In this document: in pieces, positions 6,454 through 63,728 of the stretch | How the letters are laid out: each line of letters opens with the position of its first letter | How positions within the stretch are numbered: the first letter of the stretch is position 1 | Virus record (IMG/VR): IMGVR_UViG_3300045391_006539 | DNA: 64,000 nt | Origin: a virus | Lineage: Duplodnaviria; Caudoviricetes | Direction: 5' to 3' (one strand) | Notes under the pieces: generated by a model | The model's input: the letters and a program-made list of their open reading frames with translations, nothing else | Told to the model about the DNA's origin: nothing | Databases searched by the model: none | Made by a program: the position numbers and the translations under genes

Positions 6454-6626
6454 TGTCCTCGGATGCTGTCAGAAGAGCGGCGGCAACGAGAAGGGTGGGG
6501 ATGCATTCCACCTTCGAGGGCAGTTTCGGTCACCCATGAACTCTCTCGGTAGCTGAGAAGAAAGGAGCAACGCGTTGCCGCCGCACTTCCGACAGTATCT
6601 GATGGCAGTTCTCTTTCACCAAACTC

Positions 6627-17033: not shown

Positions 17034-17516
17034 ATGGACAAAGTGCGTTTGATGGAAGTGCTCAATGACTCGACGTGCCTCATCAGCAAAGGCGAGCGCA
17101 CGCAGCGCAAGTTGCCCGGCATCTCGATAATGCTCTGGGGACTACTGCTGTCAGCGTCAGACCCGCTCATCGACAAGTTCCAGCAAGTTGACTGTCACTT
17201 CATCACAGTGGGCGTCAATCCAGTACAAGCCGAAGCTCATCGCAAGGACTTCGTCGAACTGCTCGAGCAGTTTCCAGACATGAAGAGGATGGAAGATGGC
17301 CCGAGTTATAAGCACGTGGCCAGCGTCGTCGGCGACGACATGACGGCCCTGCGCATCTTCGGTCTCGGTCAGACTCTTGGGCTCTGGGACGTGCTGCTCC
17401 CTGCCCAATTCGGTGTCGACCCAGAACTCGTAGACGAGGCAGCAGACCTCGGACTCATCGTGACGACGGGCTACCAGGCGACGCTCGCTCAGCCCGTACA
17501 ATCGGCCGTCGGCTGA
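17034..17516 (+). CDS. conserved phage hypothetical protein
   Basis: VDCHF..VGV...GPSY..V...VGD..ALR.FGLG..LGLW pattern. Confidence 0.65.
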   Translation: MDKVRLMEVLNDSTCLISKGERTQRKLPGISIMLWGLLLSASDPLIDKFQQVDCHFITVGVNPVQAEAHRKDFVELLEQFPDMKRMEDGPSYKHVASVVGDDMTALRIFGLGQTLGLWDVLLPAQFGVDPELVDEAADLGLIVTTGYQATLAQPVQSAVG

Positions 17517-17567
17517 GCCGCCTACCAAATTGGTAGGATGCTGGGGGATAATCTCCAGCGAGGCAGC

Positions 17568-17804
17568 ATGCAGGTATTGGATTGTGGCTCGGTAACCTTC
17601 AGCCCGGACCAGGTGGCGGCTCTCGCCAAGGTCCTCGAGCTCGGGAGGAAGGTTGCCGAGCACCTGGGCGCCGATGCGGAGGATGCCGACGAGACGGCGC
17701 CAGAGGTGGCGTTGCTCGAGACCATCGATTTTCTCGATGATGTGCTCGGGGTCTCCTCACTGGAATTGACCGAAGAGCTGGAAAAGCGCAGGCGGCCCAT
17801 GTAG
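17568..17804 (+). CDS. small acidic protein
   Basis: promoter motif at 17526-17552; GAGG RBS. Confidence 0.5.
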   Translation: MQVLDCGSVTFSPDQVAALAKVLELGRKVAEHLGADAEDADETAPEVALLETIDFLDDVLGVSSLELTEELEKRRRPM

Positions 17805-17811
17805 AGTCTGT

Positions 17812-18038
17812 TCGGCTCACTCTCGTGAGGAGCCTCAATCTCATGGACGACAACTAGGCGGAAGGGACGCTGATTCTTCCTTCCGCAGCATGAGTGCCCA
17901 TGTCGTGGGCCTCAGCGGTTTCAGCACCGCTAGCCGGGTGTATGTCTCCCCCATACCGTCTCGCGCGGTCACTGTCACGGAGGCGGCTTTGCCAGCACTC
18001 GTAGTATGAGATTGAGGCTCCTCGTGGGAGTGAGCCGA
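17812..18038 (+). ncRNA. candidate multibranch ncRNA closed by a 33-bp stem
   Basis: IR 17812-17844/18006-18038 whose 3 non-WC positions are all G-U on +; four internal hairpins; no ORF. Confidence 0.6.
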
Positions 18039-18070
18039 CTGCCGCGAGCAGTCTTCGACGCGAGAGAGAA

Positions 18071-18526
18071 ATGGCTAGAACTCAAGAACAATGGAATGCG
18101 GTGATGAGCTCACCGCTGATGACGCGAGAAATCTACGAAGTCTTCTTCACCCTGTGGTCTTCCCCCACCAGCCTCACCAAGGCCGAGGTGGACGCAGCGT
18201 GCAAGCACTATAACTTCGTGAAGAACCAAGGAGCACCCTGGGAGAAGCAACTGCCGCTCATGCGGCAGATGGGTATCGTCAAGCAGGACAACAAGCGGCA
18301 CTGCTCAGTCAAGAACAAGCCCGAGACGACGTGGACCATCACTGATGCCACGACCCTCAAGAAGCCCAAGGTGGCCAAGCCCTCGGCGAAGAAGTTCGCA
18401 TTGGCCGTGGCTCAGCTCGACCAGCTCATCGCGTATCATGAGCGTGCACAGGACGGTGCCATCACAGCCGACTTGAAGAAGCTCGCCGATTGGGTACGCG
18501 ACAAGGTCCAGCCAGCAAAGCAGTAG
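18071..18526 (+). CDS. putative winged-helix DNA-binding protein
   Basis: basic; LT..EV...L...GIVK...R.C.V.....TTW pattern. Confidence 0.5.
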   Translation: MARTQEQWNAVMSSPLMTREIYEVFFTLWSSPTSLTKAEVDAACKHYNFVKNQGAPWEKQLPLMRQMGIVKQDNKRHCSVKNKPETTWTITDATTLKKPKVAKPSAKKFALAVAQLDQLIAYHERAQDGAITADLKKLADWVRDKVQPAKQ

Positions 18527-43033: not shown

Positions 43034-44074
43034 TCATTTTCCCTGGGAGAAGAACTGCGCACGGATGGTGGCGCGTTCACCAGCGATGATGCTCGACAAC
43101 TGGTCCCGCGGGATGCCCATGCGGTCCGCGATGATGACGGATGCGATGAAGTTGCTCTCCAGCAGAGTGGTTATTCCAGCGAGCATGCCGTTTTGCGTGG
43201 CCAGGTGCTGGCTGAGCGTGGAGATGGCGTCGAGCAAGGGGCCCGCCGCACCCTGATTGCTCGGGTCACTCGGAGTCTGCGGCTGGCGTGGGGGTTGCGC
43301 GGCGGAGGGCGGACTTGCGGGCGGCTGCGCTCCCGGCGGCGTGAAGCCATAGTTGGGCGGGGTGCCCGGTGGCACGGGTGTGTTCATGGGGGGACCAGGC
43401 GGGGTCCAACCACCGGCACCCGGGGGCGGCCCTGCCGGTGGGGTGTAGCCCTGGGGCGGCCCTGCTGGCGGTCCCTGGGGCGGGGCCGCACCGGGCGGTA
43501 CATAGCCGCCTGGAGGAGCGCCGGGCGGCGTGTAGCCGCCCACTGGCGGCGGTGTCCAGCCGCCGGGTCCTTGGGGTGCGGGGGTTGCCGGGGGACCTCC
43601 TGGAGGGCCCGGGGGCGTCCATTGCGGCTGAGCCCCACCCGGCGGCTGCCAGGCGCCTGGAGGCGGCGGTGCGGCACCCGGAGGTGTGTAACCGCCGGGT
43701 CCCTGGGGCGGGCCGGCGTAGGGGAGCTGCTGTTGCTGGCCCGGGGGCGCGTAGGCACCGGGAGGGGGTCCGCCGGCGTAGTTCGATTGCGTCATGACTG
43801 GTTGTGCTCCTTGGGGTGCTGCATTGGGTGCTGCATTGGGTGGGGTGATGGCTGCGACCGCAGCCGTTTGTGGGTTGCCATCCAAGCGGATGAGCATGTC
43901 GTAGATGACTTGCGCTTTCTCTGGATGTTGGAGAGCGCAGAAGGCGTCCTCGGACTCCTCGTTGCCGCCGAAGATTTGTCCGGCGAGAGCGAGGCGGTAG
44001 AGGATGGCCGGGCTTTCCTTGTTGAGCTTCGCCAGGTCGCGGGGCGCTTGCTCCAGGCCGTAGAGTATCGACAT
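43034..44074 (-). CDS. protein with long Pro/Gly-rich linker
   Basis: repeated G(Y/W)TPPG units between two globular ends. Confidence 0.65.
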   Translation of the reverse strand: MSILYGLEQAPRDLAKLNKESPAILYRLALAGQIFGGNEESEDAFCALQHPEKAQVIYDMLIRLDGNPQTAAVAAITPPNAAPNAAPQGAQPVMTQSNYAGGPPPGAYAPPGQQQQLPYAGPPQGPGGYTPPGAAPPPPGAWQPPGGAQPQWTPPGPPGGPPATPAPQGPGGWTPPPVGGYTPPGAPPGGYVPPGAAPPQGPPAGPPQGYTPPAGPPPGAGGWTPPGPPMNTPVPPGTPPNYGFTPPGAQPPASPPSAAQPPRQPQTPSDPSNQGAAGPLLDAISTLSQHLATQNGMLAGITTLLESNFIASVIIADRMGIPRDQLSSIIAGERATIRAQFFSQGK

Positions 44075-59819: not shown

Positions 59820-60261
59820 GTCCCGTGTGCATCTCCTTTCCGGTGACGAGACCCATGGCTTGGGCTCTTCCATCCATCGCAATTCTTATTCCGTTTCTGA
59901 TGAGTTCTTCATGCCAGTGTCGGTCGGAGGGAGCCATGTCCTCGAAGAACGCGTAGTCACAAGGTGTGAGAATGAGGCTTCCCTGCTCGATATTGAGGAT
60001 GTGGCTCACCGATTGAGCTTGAACCAATCGCTCGAGCACGGGAATCGGACCCCTTTCCGTCATCGTCGTCTTCTGGAGGACCGTGCAAAAGAACTCGAGT
60101 GGATAGCGCATGCGGATGGGGTTGCCGATGTGCTCGATGAAGTAGCGCCTATCCGTAAATGGGATTCCATGCTCGCAGCCCCAGAGTTGTCCAATGTACT
60201 TACCAGCAGGCGTGAAAGCGATGGCCCAGACGCCGGTGCGGAGTGCTTCGTCTATGTCCAT
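59812..60261 (-). CDS. hypothetical protein
   Basis: GAGGA RBS; in operon. Confidence 0.55.
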   Translation of the reverse strand: MDIDEALRTGVWAIAFTPAGKYIGQLWGCEHGIPFTDRRYFIEHIGNPIRMRYPLEFFCTVLQKTTMTERGPIPVLERLVQAQSVSHILNIEQGSLILTPCDYAFFEDMAPSDRHWHEELIRNGIRIAMDGRAQAMGLVTGKEMHTGHA

Positions 60262-63200
60262 AGGTCCTCGAAGATGGGTCGATGGCCGTGTCCAACGGCT
60301 CTCGGGTGGTCATGCAGCTCGTATTCGAAGGGGCCGTTCTCTTCGAGCGGCCACTGATTGAGGTGTCGTCTGAGTTTCTTGCACATCCCGATGAGCGTGC
60401 CAATGTCGTCCTCGTAGATGAGGATGAGGGGCGACTTCTTACCCGCTTTCTGTCGGGTCGGTCTACCCATGACCTGCTGCAGCATGTTTCTGCTGGAGAA
60501 AGGCATGCTCATGAGCACGGTATCGAGGGACTCGTCATCGAGTCCTTCCTTGCCATACTTCGTGATGGCGAAGACGACTTTCTTGGTCTTGATGTATTCC
60601 ATCCTGGACTTCGCGTCCACGGCGTGAATCATGAGGCCAGCCGTCGTCAGGTTCTCGGTGAGCCACTTTCGATATGCCTTCTGGCGTGAGCGAAACATGC
60701 TCGAGACGAGCTGGTGAACGTCGTCCTGCTGGAACTGCAGGTTCAGGTCGGCCACACGTGCTCGTGCCTGCATCCCTTCTTCGCTGTCCGGGTCTATCCG
60801 CTCGAGCCGCTTCGTGATTTTCTCGAGTGTCGTGACCAGGAATGCACGCTGTTCCGTGGAGAGCTCGACGGGTGGCAGATGCTTGCCAACTTCGGCGGGC
60901 GTCGGAATGGGGATGTCGGTATAGAGAGAACCAGGTATCGGGCTAGACCAATTGCGCATCGTCCAGAGCGCACATAGATTGACGGCCTCGTCGATGGCAT
61001 TGCAGAGTACGAGGACCTTGCGCCCGGCCTGCACGGCTGTATCTACGTCGTTCAGAATCAGGTTCAGCCGTCGCGGCCAGCGCCCGAAGAACGAGGAGAC
61101 CTTGGACATGTGGACCTCTCCGTTGCGGTCGTAGACGTCACTCGTCGCATCCACCGAGAGCCCAGTCCACTTGAAGACGATGCGCGGCTTGATGGTGTGG
61201 GTGATGTCCTTGTAGATGGTCGGGCCCACGTGGTTGTCGTAGATGACGTTCAGGCCATCGTCTCGGACGGCCGTGGCTGTCAGTGCCAGGCGTACGCCTG
61301 GGAAGACCTCTGCTGCTGGCGCGAACGTAGACGCCGAGATGTGATGACAGTTGTGGACGAGTACGCCGTTGGCGAAGTAGTTGTGATTGCCTTCTACTTC
61401 GAGGTTATAGACCGCACTTTCTCTAGGCACTCCATCAGATTGCTCTCCACCTCCATGTTCGAGAATCTCAACATGGTCCACCCGGAGCGTTTCAAGAACT
61501 TCTCCTTCTTCACATCCCTCTGCTTTGCCTGGAGTGTCCCGTGCGACTTTCCGTCGACCTCGATGCCAATCTTCAAGGCAGGGTTGGCAATGTCTATCTT
61601 GTAGTGTGTTGGAAGGCCCTGATTGCGACTGAGTGGGCCAGTCCCCACCGAGAACTCCGCTGTCCAGCCCAGTGCCCTCAGGAGCATCTCCTGTGGCGTC
61701 GGGAGCGGCTTGCCATTTCCGCCCTGCATCTTGGGCTTGTGCCCTTTCTTCTTCAGTGTCTTTGAGACCTTCTCTCGGACACTCTTCTTTCGCATTGGGT
61801 TGCGAGTTTTCATCCGCTCGGATGCATACATCCGGTTCGTCTTTGCCATGGTCTCGGAGGACCGCATGCTCCTGAAAGCGCTGCCATGTTCTCGCGAGCA
61901 GTAGACTCGACCGAACTTTCTGTACTGGTCCTTCTGCCACTTCTTTGGAATTACTGGTGCGCTGCACCAGGAGCAAGTCAGCGTAAGCATGGTGTCTGAC
62001 TCTAACTAGGTCATCATGTTTACGCAAGGAGATTGCCGGGACATACCCACGGGATGTCCAGAATGGGTGGCCTGCAGTGCAGACCTGGCTCGTCCCATCT
62101 TCGAAGTGGACGTGGACGAGCCGTCGTGTGAATCCCGAGTGTGCCCGGAGAACTCGACGCCGCTCTATCGCGCCCGTCTCTAGGTTTGCCGAGAGGACAA
62201 TATCCCCTTCACATATGCTCTCAATGGGACGACCATCAACGAGAGTCCCAGCTGGGAAGCATTCATCAAAGACCACGCACTGAAACCAGTTCCTCACCTC
62301 ATTGGGTAGGTCATGTGCTAGGGCGCCGAGTGTGTGGTAGGTCGCCATTACTAGACCCTTCTTCCAGTCGAAGGTCCCAGCTTGAATACGCCCCACACCT
62401 CCGGGCACCTCCAGCACTTCGTCGATGGCTTGTAGCCATTGCTGAAGGAGATTAGTGTTGTCGACGACGACGAGCGCTGGTCCTCCCTTCCTCGCAATGA
62501 AGTCGAGGGCTATGACTGTTTTTCCCTTCCCACAATTGTGGATGACCATGCCGTTGGCCACGAAGTTGTTGTAGGGCGCCGGGCAGGCAATGTCGTAGAC
62601 CTCCTCTTCCCGCTTTTCAGTCATGGAGATGACCTTCACGGGAGTGGGATAGCCATCACCGATGGCAGCTGCTCCTGGCTGATGCTCGGCAAGGTGGTCT
62701 TCGATGGTTCGGACTTCGAGGTTGTCTGGGTGATTGTTCTTGTGGTTCCCGTCTTTGTGGTGAACGTGGAAGCGTGTTGGGTCGATGAATGCGAGGTCTG
62801 TCGTGAAGGACCCACCCCAGCGGCACCGGTTCCTGAACTCGTTGAGCGTCAGCTTGTTCAGCGTGGCCTCAGCGACTGCTCGGTGTTCCTCTAGGACTAT
62901 GCGCTGCTCGCCGCCCCGGGTCCCGTTCTTGTGGGCGAACGGATGTGAGTTGTACCAGGCCAAGCGCTTGTAGACAGGCTTGGACTTGCGACGCGGTGGT
63001 GCCTTACCGTCGACGATGACTTGGTCTCCGACCTTCAAACCGCTGAGCCGGCTCTTGTAGCCCCTCGTTGTCAGTACTTCATGGTCGGAGGTGAGCCACA
63101 GCCGTTTGCCATTCTCGAGCAGCAGCTCGTAGGTGTGCATCTTGTGTGGCTTCTTGATGATGCCAAGGATGGGCTGGAGACCAACTCGCCCGTCGAGGAG

Positions 63201-63728
63201 AGAGCGAATCTGCGTCGGGATGCTGGGGTCCCAGCTGTACCTGCCTTTCTCGTTGAGGCGCTGCCAGGCCTCGCGCACGGTGCACTTGAAGCCTTTGCCG
63301 GCGCGGTTGAGGTTGATGACCGTGTCGCCAGAGACGCAGCCGAGTTGCAAGATGCCGCTGTCGCTTCGGAGCAGTGCCTCGAGTGCCTTCCTCTGGACGG
63401 TCTCGCCCGTTGGCACGAGCTTGCCATTCACTCGGCGATGGTCGAGCTGGATGCGGCTCGTGATGCCTGTGGGCGTGTACTCGCGAGGTCTGCAGTCTAC
63501 GACCCTGAAAGGCATGCCTGAAGGACGCCAGAGATGCCTCGGCACGAGCAGGTGGTGCTCGGTCTCATCGAAGAGGTAGACGTACCGAATCTTCTCTTCC
63601 GAATACGAGTCTACGAAACGCATCGACAGCGCCTTCTTCACGGCGTCGACATCGACGGCGTGCTTCGGCACCCAGAACCAGTTGTCGATGTACCCCGTCA
63701 TTGGGTCTCTCTTTAGCGCTCTCATCAC
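60252..63728 (-). CDS. superfamily 2 (DExH) helicase with two inteins
   Basis: spliced Walker A LGCGKGKT, Walker B FDECHH, LTAT, EGLD, Q..GR..R. Confidence 0.9.
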   Translation of the reverse strand: MMRALKRDPMTGYIDNWFWVPKHAVDVDAVKKALSMRFVDSYSEEKIRYVYLFDETEHHLLVPRHLWRPSGMPFRVVDCRPREYTPTGITSRIQLDHRRVNGKLVPTGETVQRKALEALLRSDSGILQLGCVSGDTVINLNRAGKGFKCTVREAWQRLNEKGRYSWDPSIPTQIRSLLDGRVGLQPILGIIKKPHKMHTYELLLENGKRLWLTSDHEVLTTRGYKSRLSGLKVGDQVIVDGKAPPRRKSKPVYKRLAWYNSHPFAHKNGTRGGEQRIVLEEHRAVAEATLNKLTLNEFRNRCRWGGSFTTDLAFIDPTRFHVHHKDGNHKNNHPDNLEVRTIEDHLAEHQPGAAAIGDGYPTPVKVISMTEKREEEVYDIACPAPYNNFVANGMVIHNCGKGKTVIALDFIARKGGPALVVVDNTNLLQQWLQAIDEVLEVPGGVGRIQAGTFDWKKGLVMATYHTLGALAHDLPNEVRNWFQCVVFDECFPAGTLVDGRPIESICEGDIVLSANLETGAIERRRVLRAHSGFTRRLVHVHFEDGTSQVCTAGHPFWTSRGYVPAISLRKHDDLVRVRHHAYADLLLVQRTSNSKEVAEGPVQKVRSSLLLARTWQRFQEHAVLRDHGKDEPDVCIRADENSQPNAKEECPREGLKDTEEERAQAQDAGRKWQAAPDATGDAPEGTGLDSGVLGGDWPTQSQSGPSNTLQDRHCQPCLEDWHRGRRKVARDTPGKAEGCEEGEVLETLRVDHVEILEHGGGEQSDGVPRESAVYNLEVEGNHNYFANGVLVHNCHHISASTFAPAAEVFPGVRLALTATAVRDDGLNVIYDNHVGPTIYKDITHTIKPRIVFKWTGLSVDATSDVYDRNGEVHMSKVSSFFGRWPRRLNLILNDVDTAVQAGRKVLVLCNAIDEAVNLCALWTMRNWSSPIPGSLYTDIPIPTPAEVGKHLPPVELSTEQRAFLVTTLEKITKRLERIDPDSEEGMQARARVADLNLQFQQDDVHQLVSSMFRSRQKAYRKWLTENLTTAGLMIHAVDAKSRMEYIKTKKVVFAITKYGKEGLDDESLDTVLMSMPFSSRNMLQQVMGRPTRQKAGKKSPLILIYEDDIGTLIGMCKKLRRHLNQWPLEENGPFEYELHDHPRAVGHGHRPIFEDLWT
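61350..62261 (-). mobile_element. intein in helicase Walker B with an overprinted endonuclease gene
   Basis: FDE|CFPAGT...CTAGHPF...VYNLEVEGNHNYFANGVLVHN|CHH; 304 aa. Confidence 0.9.
61394..61990 (-). CDS. Vsr/DUF559-like endonuclease in an alternate frame inside the intein
   Basis: CSWC...YCSREH; YKIDIA; IEVDGKSH; RD..K..FL...GW..LRFSN. Confidence 0.8.
   Translation of the reverse strand: MLTLTCSWCSAPVIPKKWQKDQYRKFGRVYCSREHGSAFRSMRSSETMAKTNRMYASERMKTRNPMRKKSVREKVSKTLKKKGHKPKMQGGNGKPLPTPQEMLLRALGWTAEFSVGTGPLSRNQGLPTHYKIDIANPALKIGIEVDGKSHGTLQAKQRDVKKEKFLKRSGWTMLRFSNMEVESNLMECLEKVRSITSK
62535..63338 (-). mobile_element. HNH-containing intein in helicase Walker A
   Basis: LG|CVSGDT...LTSDH...HVHHKDGNHKNNHPDNL...VYDI...NFVANGMVIHN|CGKGKT; 268 aa. 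Confidence 0.9.

Follow-up and report, generated by a model that had tools for sequence, protein, structure and literature searches.

Between two genes of an uncultured phage lies a 227-nt segment whose two ends can pair with each other. Is this a repeat that acts as DNA or the gene for a folded RNA and, if the latter, what might such an RNA do? The segment occupies positions 17812-18038 of a 64,000-nt stretch (the window), which is part of a 150-kb viral contig from IMG/VR that is estimated to be 80% complete (Duplodnaviria; Caudoviricetes; record IMGVR_UViG_3300045391_006539). An earlier reading of the letters alone (the sequence-only reading) had proposed an undescribed structured RNA, possibly excised by RNase III. 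Our analysis indicates that 17812-18038 is almost certainly the gene for a folded RNA transcribed from the + strand. It is a new RNA family with a new architecture, of a broad type (structured phage non-coding RNA) that is familiar. For its function, our tentative preference is a leader that acts in cis on transcription.

The closing stem had been described as 33 bp long with only G-U deviations, and this holds to the nucleotide. The arms, 17812-17844 and 18006-18038, measure 33 nt each and are 91% complementary, and their 3 non-Watson-Crick positions are all G-U on the + strand. A 33-nt arm pattern of this kind is expected 0.00 times per 100 shuffles of the window, in which 17812-18038 is the longest well-paired inverted repeat within 600 nt. 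The 227-nt RNA has a fold energy of -125 kcal/mol versus -85 ± 5 in shuffles (z = -8.0). The element sits in a 266-nt gap between the + strand open reading frames (ORFs) 17538-17804 and 18071-18526, and both BLAST and a covariance model find a single copy in the 150-kb contig.

Eleven distinct lineages of metagenomic phages (the window, L010, L011, L015, L017, L019, L020, L033, L035, L036 and L037), whose flanking proteins are 34-80% identical, carry the element in one and the same syntenic slot. Conservation counts rest on loci with retrieved DNA, that is, on these 11 carriers. Every relative locus of the RNA-bearing clade with DNA has a gap of 240-335 nt at the same position, which aligns with the element, and three further relative contigs, available as gene maps only, show a 266-268 nt gap at the same place. 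The covariance model was seeded with 5 members, and the six members outside the seed scored 80-138 bits on the + strand and ≤44 bits on the - strand. An alignment by MAFFT only mis-registered the closing helix in divergent members, and covariance-model alignments were used instead. A degenerate DNA pattern built from conserved blocks recovered only 4-7 of the 11 known members, with many chance matches expected. In agreement with the sequence-only reading, which had found no ORF here, no frame is open across the element in all 11 lineages.

The RNA consists of a ~30-bp helix, P1, which closes a five-way junction with P2, P3, P4 and P5. In the window, its parts lie as follows.

17812-17844, + strand: 5′ arm of P1; in the family, 29 model pairs, 95.6% paired, 24 with double changes.
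17848-17852, + strand: J1/2 strand CGACA of a pseudoknot, which pairs with the L3 loop UGUCG.
17857-17888, + strand: P2 hairpin of 11-12 bp with a 9-nt loop; 11 of 12 pairs with double changes.
17869-17873, + strand: P2 loop GCUGA, the 5′ strand of a kissing loop.
17894-17912, + strand: P3 hairpin of 6 bp; 6 of 6 pairs with double changes.
17901-17905, + strand: P3 loop UGUCG, the 3′ strand of the pseudoknot.
17914-17931, + strand: P4 hairpin of 6 bp; 6 of 6 pairs with double changes.
17921-17925, + strand: P4 loop UCAGC, the 3′ strand of the kissing loop.
17935-18001, + strand: P5 domain, with its closing helix on the GGUGU/AGCAC side (7 pairs, 97% paired, 5 with double changes) and a variable interior (P5a, P6).
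18006-18038, + strand: 3′ arm of P1, partner of 17812-17844.

Pair counts were taken from an 11-lineage covariance-model alignment, A10. Its 78 pairs comprise 827 cells, and 93.2% of these are paired, a figure that drops to 37-43% if the 3′ partners are shifted by 1-3 columns. A homolog alignment had been suggested as a check by the sequence-only reading; as run here with the covariance model, it reveals double changes in 61 of the 78 pairs, and none of 500 shuffles reached any of five measures. A10 was fitted to the nested helices, so that their pairing is somewhat inflated, and independent single-sequence folds give the same architecture. The inner helices of P5 are 75-78% paired, and the length of this interior is lineage-specific, with large indels between lineages; the RNA as a whole ranges from 215 to 240 nt. 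Among the interior hairpins that the sequence-only reading had listed, GCGGAAGG/CCTTCCGC (P2), GCCCA/TGGGC (P3) and AGCGGT/ACCGCT (P4) are real, conserved and covarying, whereas GTATG/CATAC, part of the variable P5 domain, is unconserved.

Two tertiary contacts tie the hairpins together. They were first spotted by eye, and neither is part of the covariance model. The J1/2-L3 pseudoknot is 98% paired, and 4 of its 5 pairs covary, with the variants CGACG/CGUCG in L033, UGACG/CGUCA in L037 and CGGUA/UACCG in L019. The L2-L4 kissing loop, formed by GCNNA in the P2 loop and UNNGC in the P4 loop, is 100% paired and occurs in the states GCUGA/UCAGC, GCUAA/UUAGC and GCGAA/UUCGC. In an unbiased scan of 323 antiparallel pairings of 5 unpaired columns each, the kissing loop ranked first (1.00) and the pseudoknot second (0.98), against a mean of 0.37 (standard deviation 0.14). 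Few unpaired bases are invariant (A44, G78, G128, C129 and A247, in A10 columns).

The three G-U pairs of the stem had been taken as evidence for an RNA helix read from the + strand. In a single copy they are weak evidence, expected by chance about 1 time in 8, but the tally over 11 lineages confirms the strand: over all pairs and lineages there are 78 G-U and 17 A-C combinations on the + strand, in 35 and 12 pair columns, respectively. Since the opposite strand would reverse these numbers, the tally marks the + strand. The G-U bias, the pseudoknot and the kissing loop together argue for a transcript that folds and that is read from the + strand, like the surrounding genes.

With one syntenic site in 11 diverged lineages, covariation in every helix, two tertiary contacts and no Rfam family, the proposal of an undescribed structured RNA is borne out. 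The Rfam search, which had also been suggested, covered the 4,227 models of Rfam 15, including riboswitches, ribozymes, 6S, Y RNA, pRNA, group I and II introns, GOLLD, ROOL and raiA, and no family matched any of the five members scanned at E ≤ 10. The only Rfam overlap of the window element is a 42-nt fragment of a snoRNA model on the opposite strand, at 12 bits versus 45 needed; in L015, L017, L019 and L020 it is a plant miRNA-precursor model, at 20.6 bits versus 268 needed, and nothing recurs between members. A 2023 catalogue of structured-RNA candidates from IMG/VR required at least 3 distinct IMG/VR regions per motif (PMC10690425). Because the family has one IMG/VR record in the present scans, it is probably absent from that catalogue.

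Only one clade of large, rather GC-rich uncultured phages carries the family. No copy of the element was found in 50,697 phage records (INPHARED, blastn), in IMG/VR or in 185,579 species genomes, and the clade itself, this record excepted, is absent from IMG/VR and from those species genomes. A tblastn search of INPHARED with both flanking proteins gave no match, and searches of IMG/VR and genome contigs with the flanking proteins, as single proteins and as alignments, found no relatives. An IMG/VR scan with the inner 18-mer of the arm returned six matches, all due to chance and all inside one unrelated conserved coding gene. The phage DNA polymerase is ≤30% identical to that of any cultured phage.

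What the RNA might do depends on where its transcript begins and ends and on the genes that surround it. The relevant features of the window are these.

17034-17516, + strand: upstream gene, 160 amino acids (aa), found before the RNA wherever a lineage has enough sequence.
17779-17784, + strand: -35-like hexamer TGGAAA (family T[GA]G[ATC]NN), 17 nt upstream of the -10 box in 11 of 11 lineages.
17802-17807, + strand: -10-like hexamer TAGAGT (family TANNNT), whose TAG is the stop codon of the upstream ORF.
18037-18053, + strand: small hairpin GACUGC-CGCGA-GCAGUC without a U tract, a possible weak terminator (-9.4 kcal/mol; unflagged by a terminator scanner).
18071-18526, + strand: downstream gene for a winged-helix regulator-like protein of 151 aa; in 11 of 11 lineages it immediately follows the RNA and is read in the same direction.

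Across the 11 lineages, T1 and G3 of the -35 box are invariant and the sequence of the 17-nt spacer is unconserved. The -10 box, TANNNT, ends 3-8 nt before P1 in 10 of 11 lineages; its T1, A2 and T6 are kept and its middle bases vary. We infer from this pattern a sigma-70-type promoter whose start site would be the first base of P1. A small upstream ORF runs into the boxes with its 3′ end in seven lineages; one subclade has the TAG stop of this ORF within the -10 box, another within the -35 box. Conservation of the boxes is partly confounded, because the -35 box of the window lies inside this small coding ORF. L019, L020, L035 and L036 are non-coding from the -35 box to P1, and L019 lacks the small ORF and still has both boxes. 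In place of the small ORF, L019 carries a 13-bp hairpin (GTACGCTGTCGGA...TCCGACAGCGTAC, L019 1000-1040) after the 160-aa gene and just before the promoter boxes.

On the 3′ side, a terminator-like hairpin follows P1 in 4 of 11 lineages: those of L010 and L015 have U tracts and are scanner-positive, and those of the window and L033 lack a U tract. The L010 and L015 terminators lie 4-7 nt after the RNA, with only ~20 nt then remaining to the ATG. In the other seven lineages there is no terminator after P1, and the Shine-Dalgarno sequence and ATG lie 16-28 nt beyond it; the distance from P1 to the ATG spans 16-51 nt across all 11. One locus among the close relatives, L014, has no element. L014 1-260 and L015 2940-3003 share the same terminator, ribosome-binding site and winged-helix gene, and L014 has a different upstream ORF and module and no RNA; identity begins 4 nt past the 3′ end of P1, which places a mosaic recombination junction at the RNA boundary. 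L014 thus differs in its whole upstream module and offers no precise empty site. A distant clade of the downstream protein (P0009) has a 9-nt spacer and no element.

The 151-aa downstream protein has relatives at 34-54% identity on metagenomic contigs. Its model (predicted local distance difference test, pLDDT, 84) finds its best fold matches among winged helix-turn-helix proteins of the PadR, PerR and MarR types (Foldseek probability 0.97-1.0, E ~4e-3, template-modeling score ~0.4), and as modeled the protein resembles these regulators at the fold level only. A MazG-like gene and a dCTP deaminase gene lie behind it. The family of the 160-aa upstream protein comprises 44 clusters at 53-80% identity; its model (pLDDT 87) gave no significant structural match in a Foldseek search of the PDB, and neither this search nor the Protein Atlas yielded a usable match, only weak winged-helix-like rows. 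No Pfam family matched the neighbouring proteins, the 160-aa protein included.

The reading that we tentatively favour, although the chance that it is right in full falls short of even, is that the RNA is a cis-acting leader that lets polymerase read through terminators, by analogy with the antitermination of HK022 put, Bacillus EAR and plasmid conAn2. Transcription would start at the base of P1 from the sigma-70-type promoter and, in most lineages, would continue into the winged-helix gene and the co-directional genes behind it, so that the RNA would form the 5′ leader of this unit. The folded module, by itself or together with a phage protein, may then act in cis on the very RNA polymerase that transcribed it, and this polymerase would read through terminators, as with the three elements just named. 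P1 would nucleate and insulate the fold and protect its 5′ end. The layout suits a leader: in 11 of 11 lineages the gene immediately after the RNA comes from one and the same family and is read in the same direction. Action in cis on the polymerase is suggested because P1 is too stable to switch and because, in some lineages, a strong terminator follows without room for a second promoter.

Several points weigh against this. The antitermination step is drawn from analogy, and neither the RNA nor the 160-aa protein is related to conAn. The promoter is predicted from conservation only, its boxes overlap the small upstream ORF in 7 lineages, and a promoter scanner does not flag them (8 of 12 matches to the E. 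coli consensus versus a threshold of 9 of 12). A canonical terminator stands right after the RNA in only 2 of 11 lineages. The downstream gene is not strictly dependent on the leader, because L014 and the distant P0009 clade have this gene but lack the RNA. Finally, sealed ends and a tertiary-locked fold, at a length of 220 nt, are just as characteristic of stable RNAs that stand alone.

This last point leads to the rival that survives best, one that we regard as possible and rather doubtful: a stand-alone, trans-acting stable RNA, released by a terminator or by cleavage at or beyond P1, which might serve as a protein scaffold, decoy or inhibitor or might self-assemble through its L2 and L4 loops, in the manner of phi29 pRNA and of the ROOL and GOLLD RNAs. 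Both of its ends are sealed in a 30-bp helix around a compact, tertiary-locked core, it has its own predicted promoter, and 4 of 11 lineages have terminator-like hairpins directly after P1. L014, which has the gene without the RNA and a mosaic junction 4 nt after P1, shows that the RNA can be separated from the downstream gene. The stems that carry the kissing loops are unequal (12 bp versus 6 bp), which makes an intermolecular kiss possible. Release would nonetheless require an unproven cleavage, because 7 of 11 lineages have no terminator and place the Shine-Dalgarno sequence and ATG 16-28 nt past P1. The RNA is never found apart from the winged-helix gene (11 of 11), the usual signature of a cis element, and no partner was found: the contig lacks Ro60, RtcB and reverse transcriptase genes, and the 160-aa neighbour has no recognisable RNA-binding fold.

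That P1 is an RNase III site, which separates the upstream and downstream messages and sets the stability or translation of the winged-helix gene while the interior is secondary, is quite unlikely. In all lineages P1 is a near-perfect duplex of 29-33 bp, long enough for bacterial RNase III (at least ~20 bp of double-stranded RNA), and the element stands between two genes of the same sense, 16-51 nt from the next start codon. A processing stem, however, could do without a conserved five-way junction, pseudoknot or kissing loop, and in this RNA constraint is strongest in exactly these parts. No nuclease is needed for the RNA 5′ end, because the conserved promoter would set it at the base of P1 without cleavage. 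No RNase III gene was found in the phage contig, so the enzyme would have to be that of the host. The terminal repeats of conAn2 in plasmid pLS20 are dispensable for function (PMC8191782), so that stems of this kind can be accessory.

A new ligand-sensing riboswitch that gates the downstream operon, with its MazG-like and dCTP deaminase genes, or a self-cleaving ribozyme, is in our estimate very unlikely. Either class would suit the multi-way junction, the pseudoknot, the loop-loop contact and the small set of invariant unpaired bases; for a riboswitch one may add that the element precedes, in the same orientation, genes some of which encode nucleotide-metabolism enzymes, and that a terminator follows in some lineages. 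Against a riboswitch, an expression platform could not plausibly displace the 30-bp P1, and no alternative pairing with the terminator or the Shine-Dalgarno sequence is visible; a classical riboswitch is unlikely because P1 is too stable for switching. The adjacent downstream gene is regulator-like and encodes neither an enzyme nor a transporter. A ribozyme would find very few invariant unpaired nucleotides for a catalytic core, and no Rfam family of either type reached E ≤ 10 in five members.

A DNA-level element (a miniature inverted-repeat transposable element (MITE), a protein-bound inverted repeat or a single-strand DNA origin structure) is hardly credible: 33-bp terminal inverted repeats around ~160 bp without an ORF do have the textbook look of a MITE, and the arms of an inverted repeat bound by one protein can also change in step, but duplex DNA would show no covarying internal hairpins, pseudoknot or kissing loop, nor a strand-specific G-U bias. 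The sequence-only reading had itself named dispersed MITE-like repeats with target duplications as evidence that would speak against an RNA. We found instead a single copy with no direct repeat in its flanks (GTCTGT before it and CTGCCG after it), in the same slot and conserved synteny in 11 lineages with 20-66% divergence of the flanking proteins, and a MITE or an element derived from an insertion sequence was rejected on these grounds.

Further identities were rejected. For a retron, the reverse transcriptase family PF00078 is unmatched in the 150-kb contig at E ≤ 0.01, and control genomes match. A bacterial Y RNA (YrlA) in a Ro60 ribonucleoprotein is unsupported: a search of the contig genes found neither TROVE (PF05731) nor RtcB (PF01139), and no Y RNA model of Rfam matched. 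A TIGR-Tas-like locus lies 2 kb upstream of the RNA in the window, but a link was rejected, since L035, L036 and L037 carry the RNA without a large Tas-like gene upstream and no spacer pair of the array falls within 150 nt of the element. The TIGR-like array itself (window 14009-14660, minus strand) has 18 GCGNGCC anchors with a period of 34-37 nt. Both spacers of its third unit (ACCGGCAC and CACCCCACCG) occur at window 43412-43445, on opposite strands, which could be a self-target (chance expectation ~0.01-0.06). In a distant clade without the RNA, a minus-strand gene with an mCpol domain (PF18182) takes the place of the Tas-like gene (L021 500-1765 and L022 504-1766).

Elsewhere in the window, 12332-12418 holds a second long hairpin, whose 24-nt arms are 92% complementary. 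The minus strand gives the better fold (-64 versus -54 kcal/mol; z = -10), and the hairpin is probably a minus-strand RNA element or terminator. An inverted repeat at 6454-6607 has 35-nt arms, 83% complementary and 84 nt apart. At 60252-63728 (minus strand), a helicase-like ORF of 1158 aa (ResIII) is interrupted by intein splicing, HINT and HNH domains.

To our knowledge, phage RNA folds of such size and complexity are few, and most of those known (pRNA, GOLLD, ROOL, put) do unusual things. A broader proposal, and again a doubtful one, is that this RNA is the founding member of a new class of tertiary-structured phage RNAs that act on a machine and not by base-pairing with a target, either as a third processive antiterminator made of RNA only (or of RNA and a small protein) or as a particle that self-assembles through L2 and L4. 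If an antiterminator, it would be a new RNA-based phage takeover of host transcription; if a free particle, a new RNA-protein or RNA-only assembly. The minimum yield is a well-supported new family for Rfam, which also marks an uncultured phage clade in which TIGR-Tas loci occur. The gene model is complete, from a predicted promoter and start through a fold whose two tertiary contacts have natural compensatory variants to an optional terminator, and the 11 natural sequence variants can be used as ready-made mutants.

How, then, does the RNA compare with known systems? Retron msr-msd RNAs are alike in having terminal inverted repeats (a1/a2) that enclose ~200 nt of RNA, in which one long, variable hairpin stands beside several others; a retron, however, needs an adjacent reverse transcriptase, and the neighbours of the element encode small proteins of other kinds. 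RNase III processing stems, such as the T7 intercistronic sites, the lambda N leader and the stalks of rRNA precursors, share a long near-perfect duplex between genes of the same sense, and the rRNA stalk encloses a functional RNA, but the phage sites are simple hairpins without a conserved, tertiary-structured interior. GOLLD, ROOL, raiA, OLE and riboswitches with multi-way junctions (that for lysine has a five-way junction and a loop-loop contact) resemble the element in their elaborate covarying folds and long-range loop contacts, and several are phage-associated and of unknown function; the element differs in its lack of an Rfam match, its size of 215-240 nt, its 30-bp P1 and its J1/2-L3 and L2-L4 topology.

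The pRNA of the phi29 family is likewise phage-encoded, with its 5′ and 3′ ends paired in a long helix and two complementary loops that covary between phages. It has a three-way junction, it belongs to small, protein-primed Bacillus phages, and its loops pair between molecules to build a ring on the portal. The element has no Rfam match to pRNA, and its loops could pair within one molecule. HK022 put and Bacillus EAR are structured RNAs in promoter-proximal or intra-operon positions that act in cis on the transcribing polymerase, and put is phage-borne and located after early promoters and before terminators. With ~70 nt and two stem-loops for put and ~120 nt for EAR, both are much smaller than the element and have no long closing helix, and neither reached E ≤ 10 in the Rfam scans.

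The last comparison is with conAn, a bipartite processive antitermination system of pLS20 and other conjugative plasmids of Gram-positive bacteria (PMC8191782, PMC10325885). Its RNA part in pLS20, conAn2, is a cis-acting antiterminator in an intergenic region at the head of a long operon, after the gene for a 172-aa protein, with a 238-bp centre and flanking 20-bp inverted repeats (PMC8191782). The two RNAs are unrelated (the element model scores ≤4 bits on conAn2), as are the proteins, an 18-sequence profile of the 160-aa family giving a probability of 0.15% and an E of 0.39 against pLS20 ConAn1 in hhalign. The element has its own predicted promoter directly upstream, and conAn2 has no reported pseudoknot or kissing loop and resides in plasmids of low-GC Firmicutes, not in phages. 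In our hands the conAn2 region (L040 3083-3465) folds with a ~25-bp closing stem and a multi-branched interior (z = -4.6). Both RNAs are non-coding and intergenic, a few hundred nt long and in the sense of a long operon near its head, with terminal inverted repeats that close a branched interior; upstream of each lies a gene whose product, a protein of ~160-170 aa, has an unknown fold, and both have terminators downstream.

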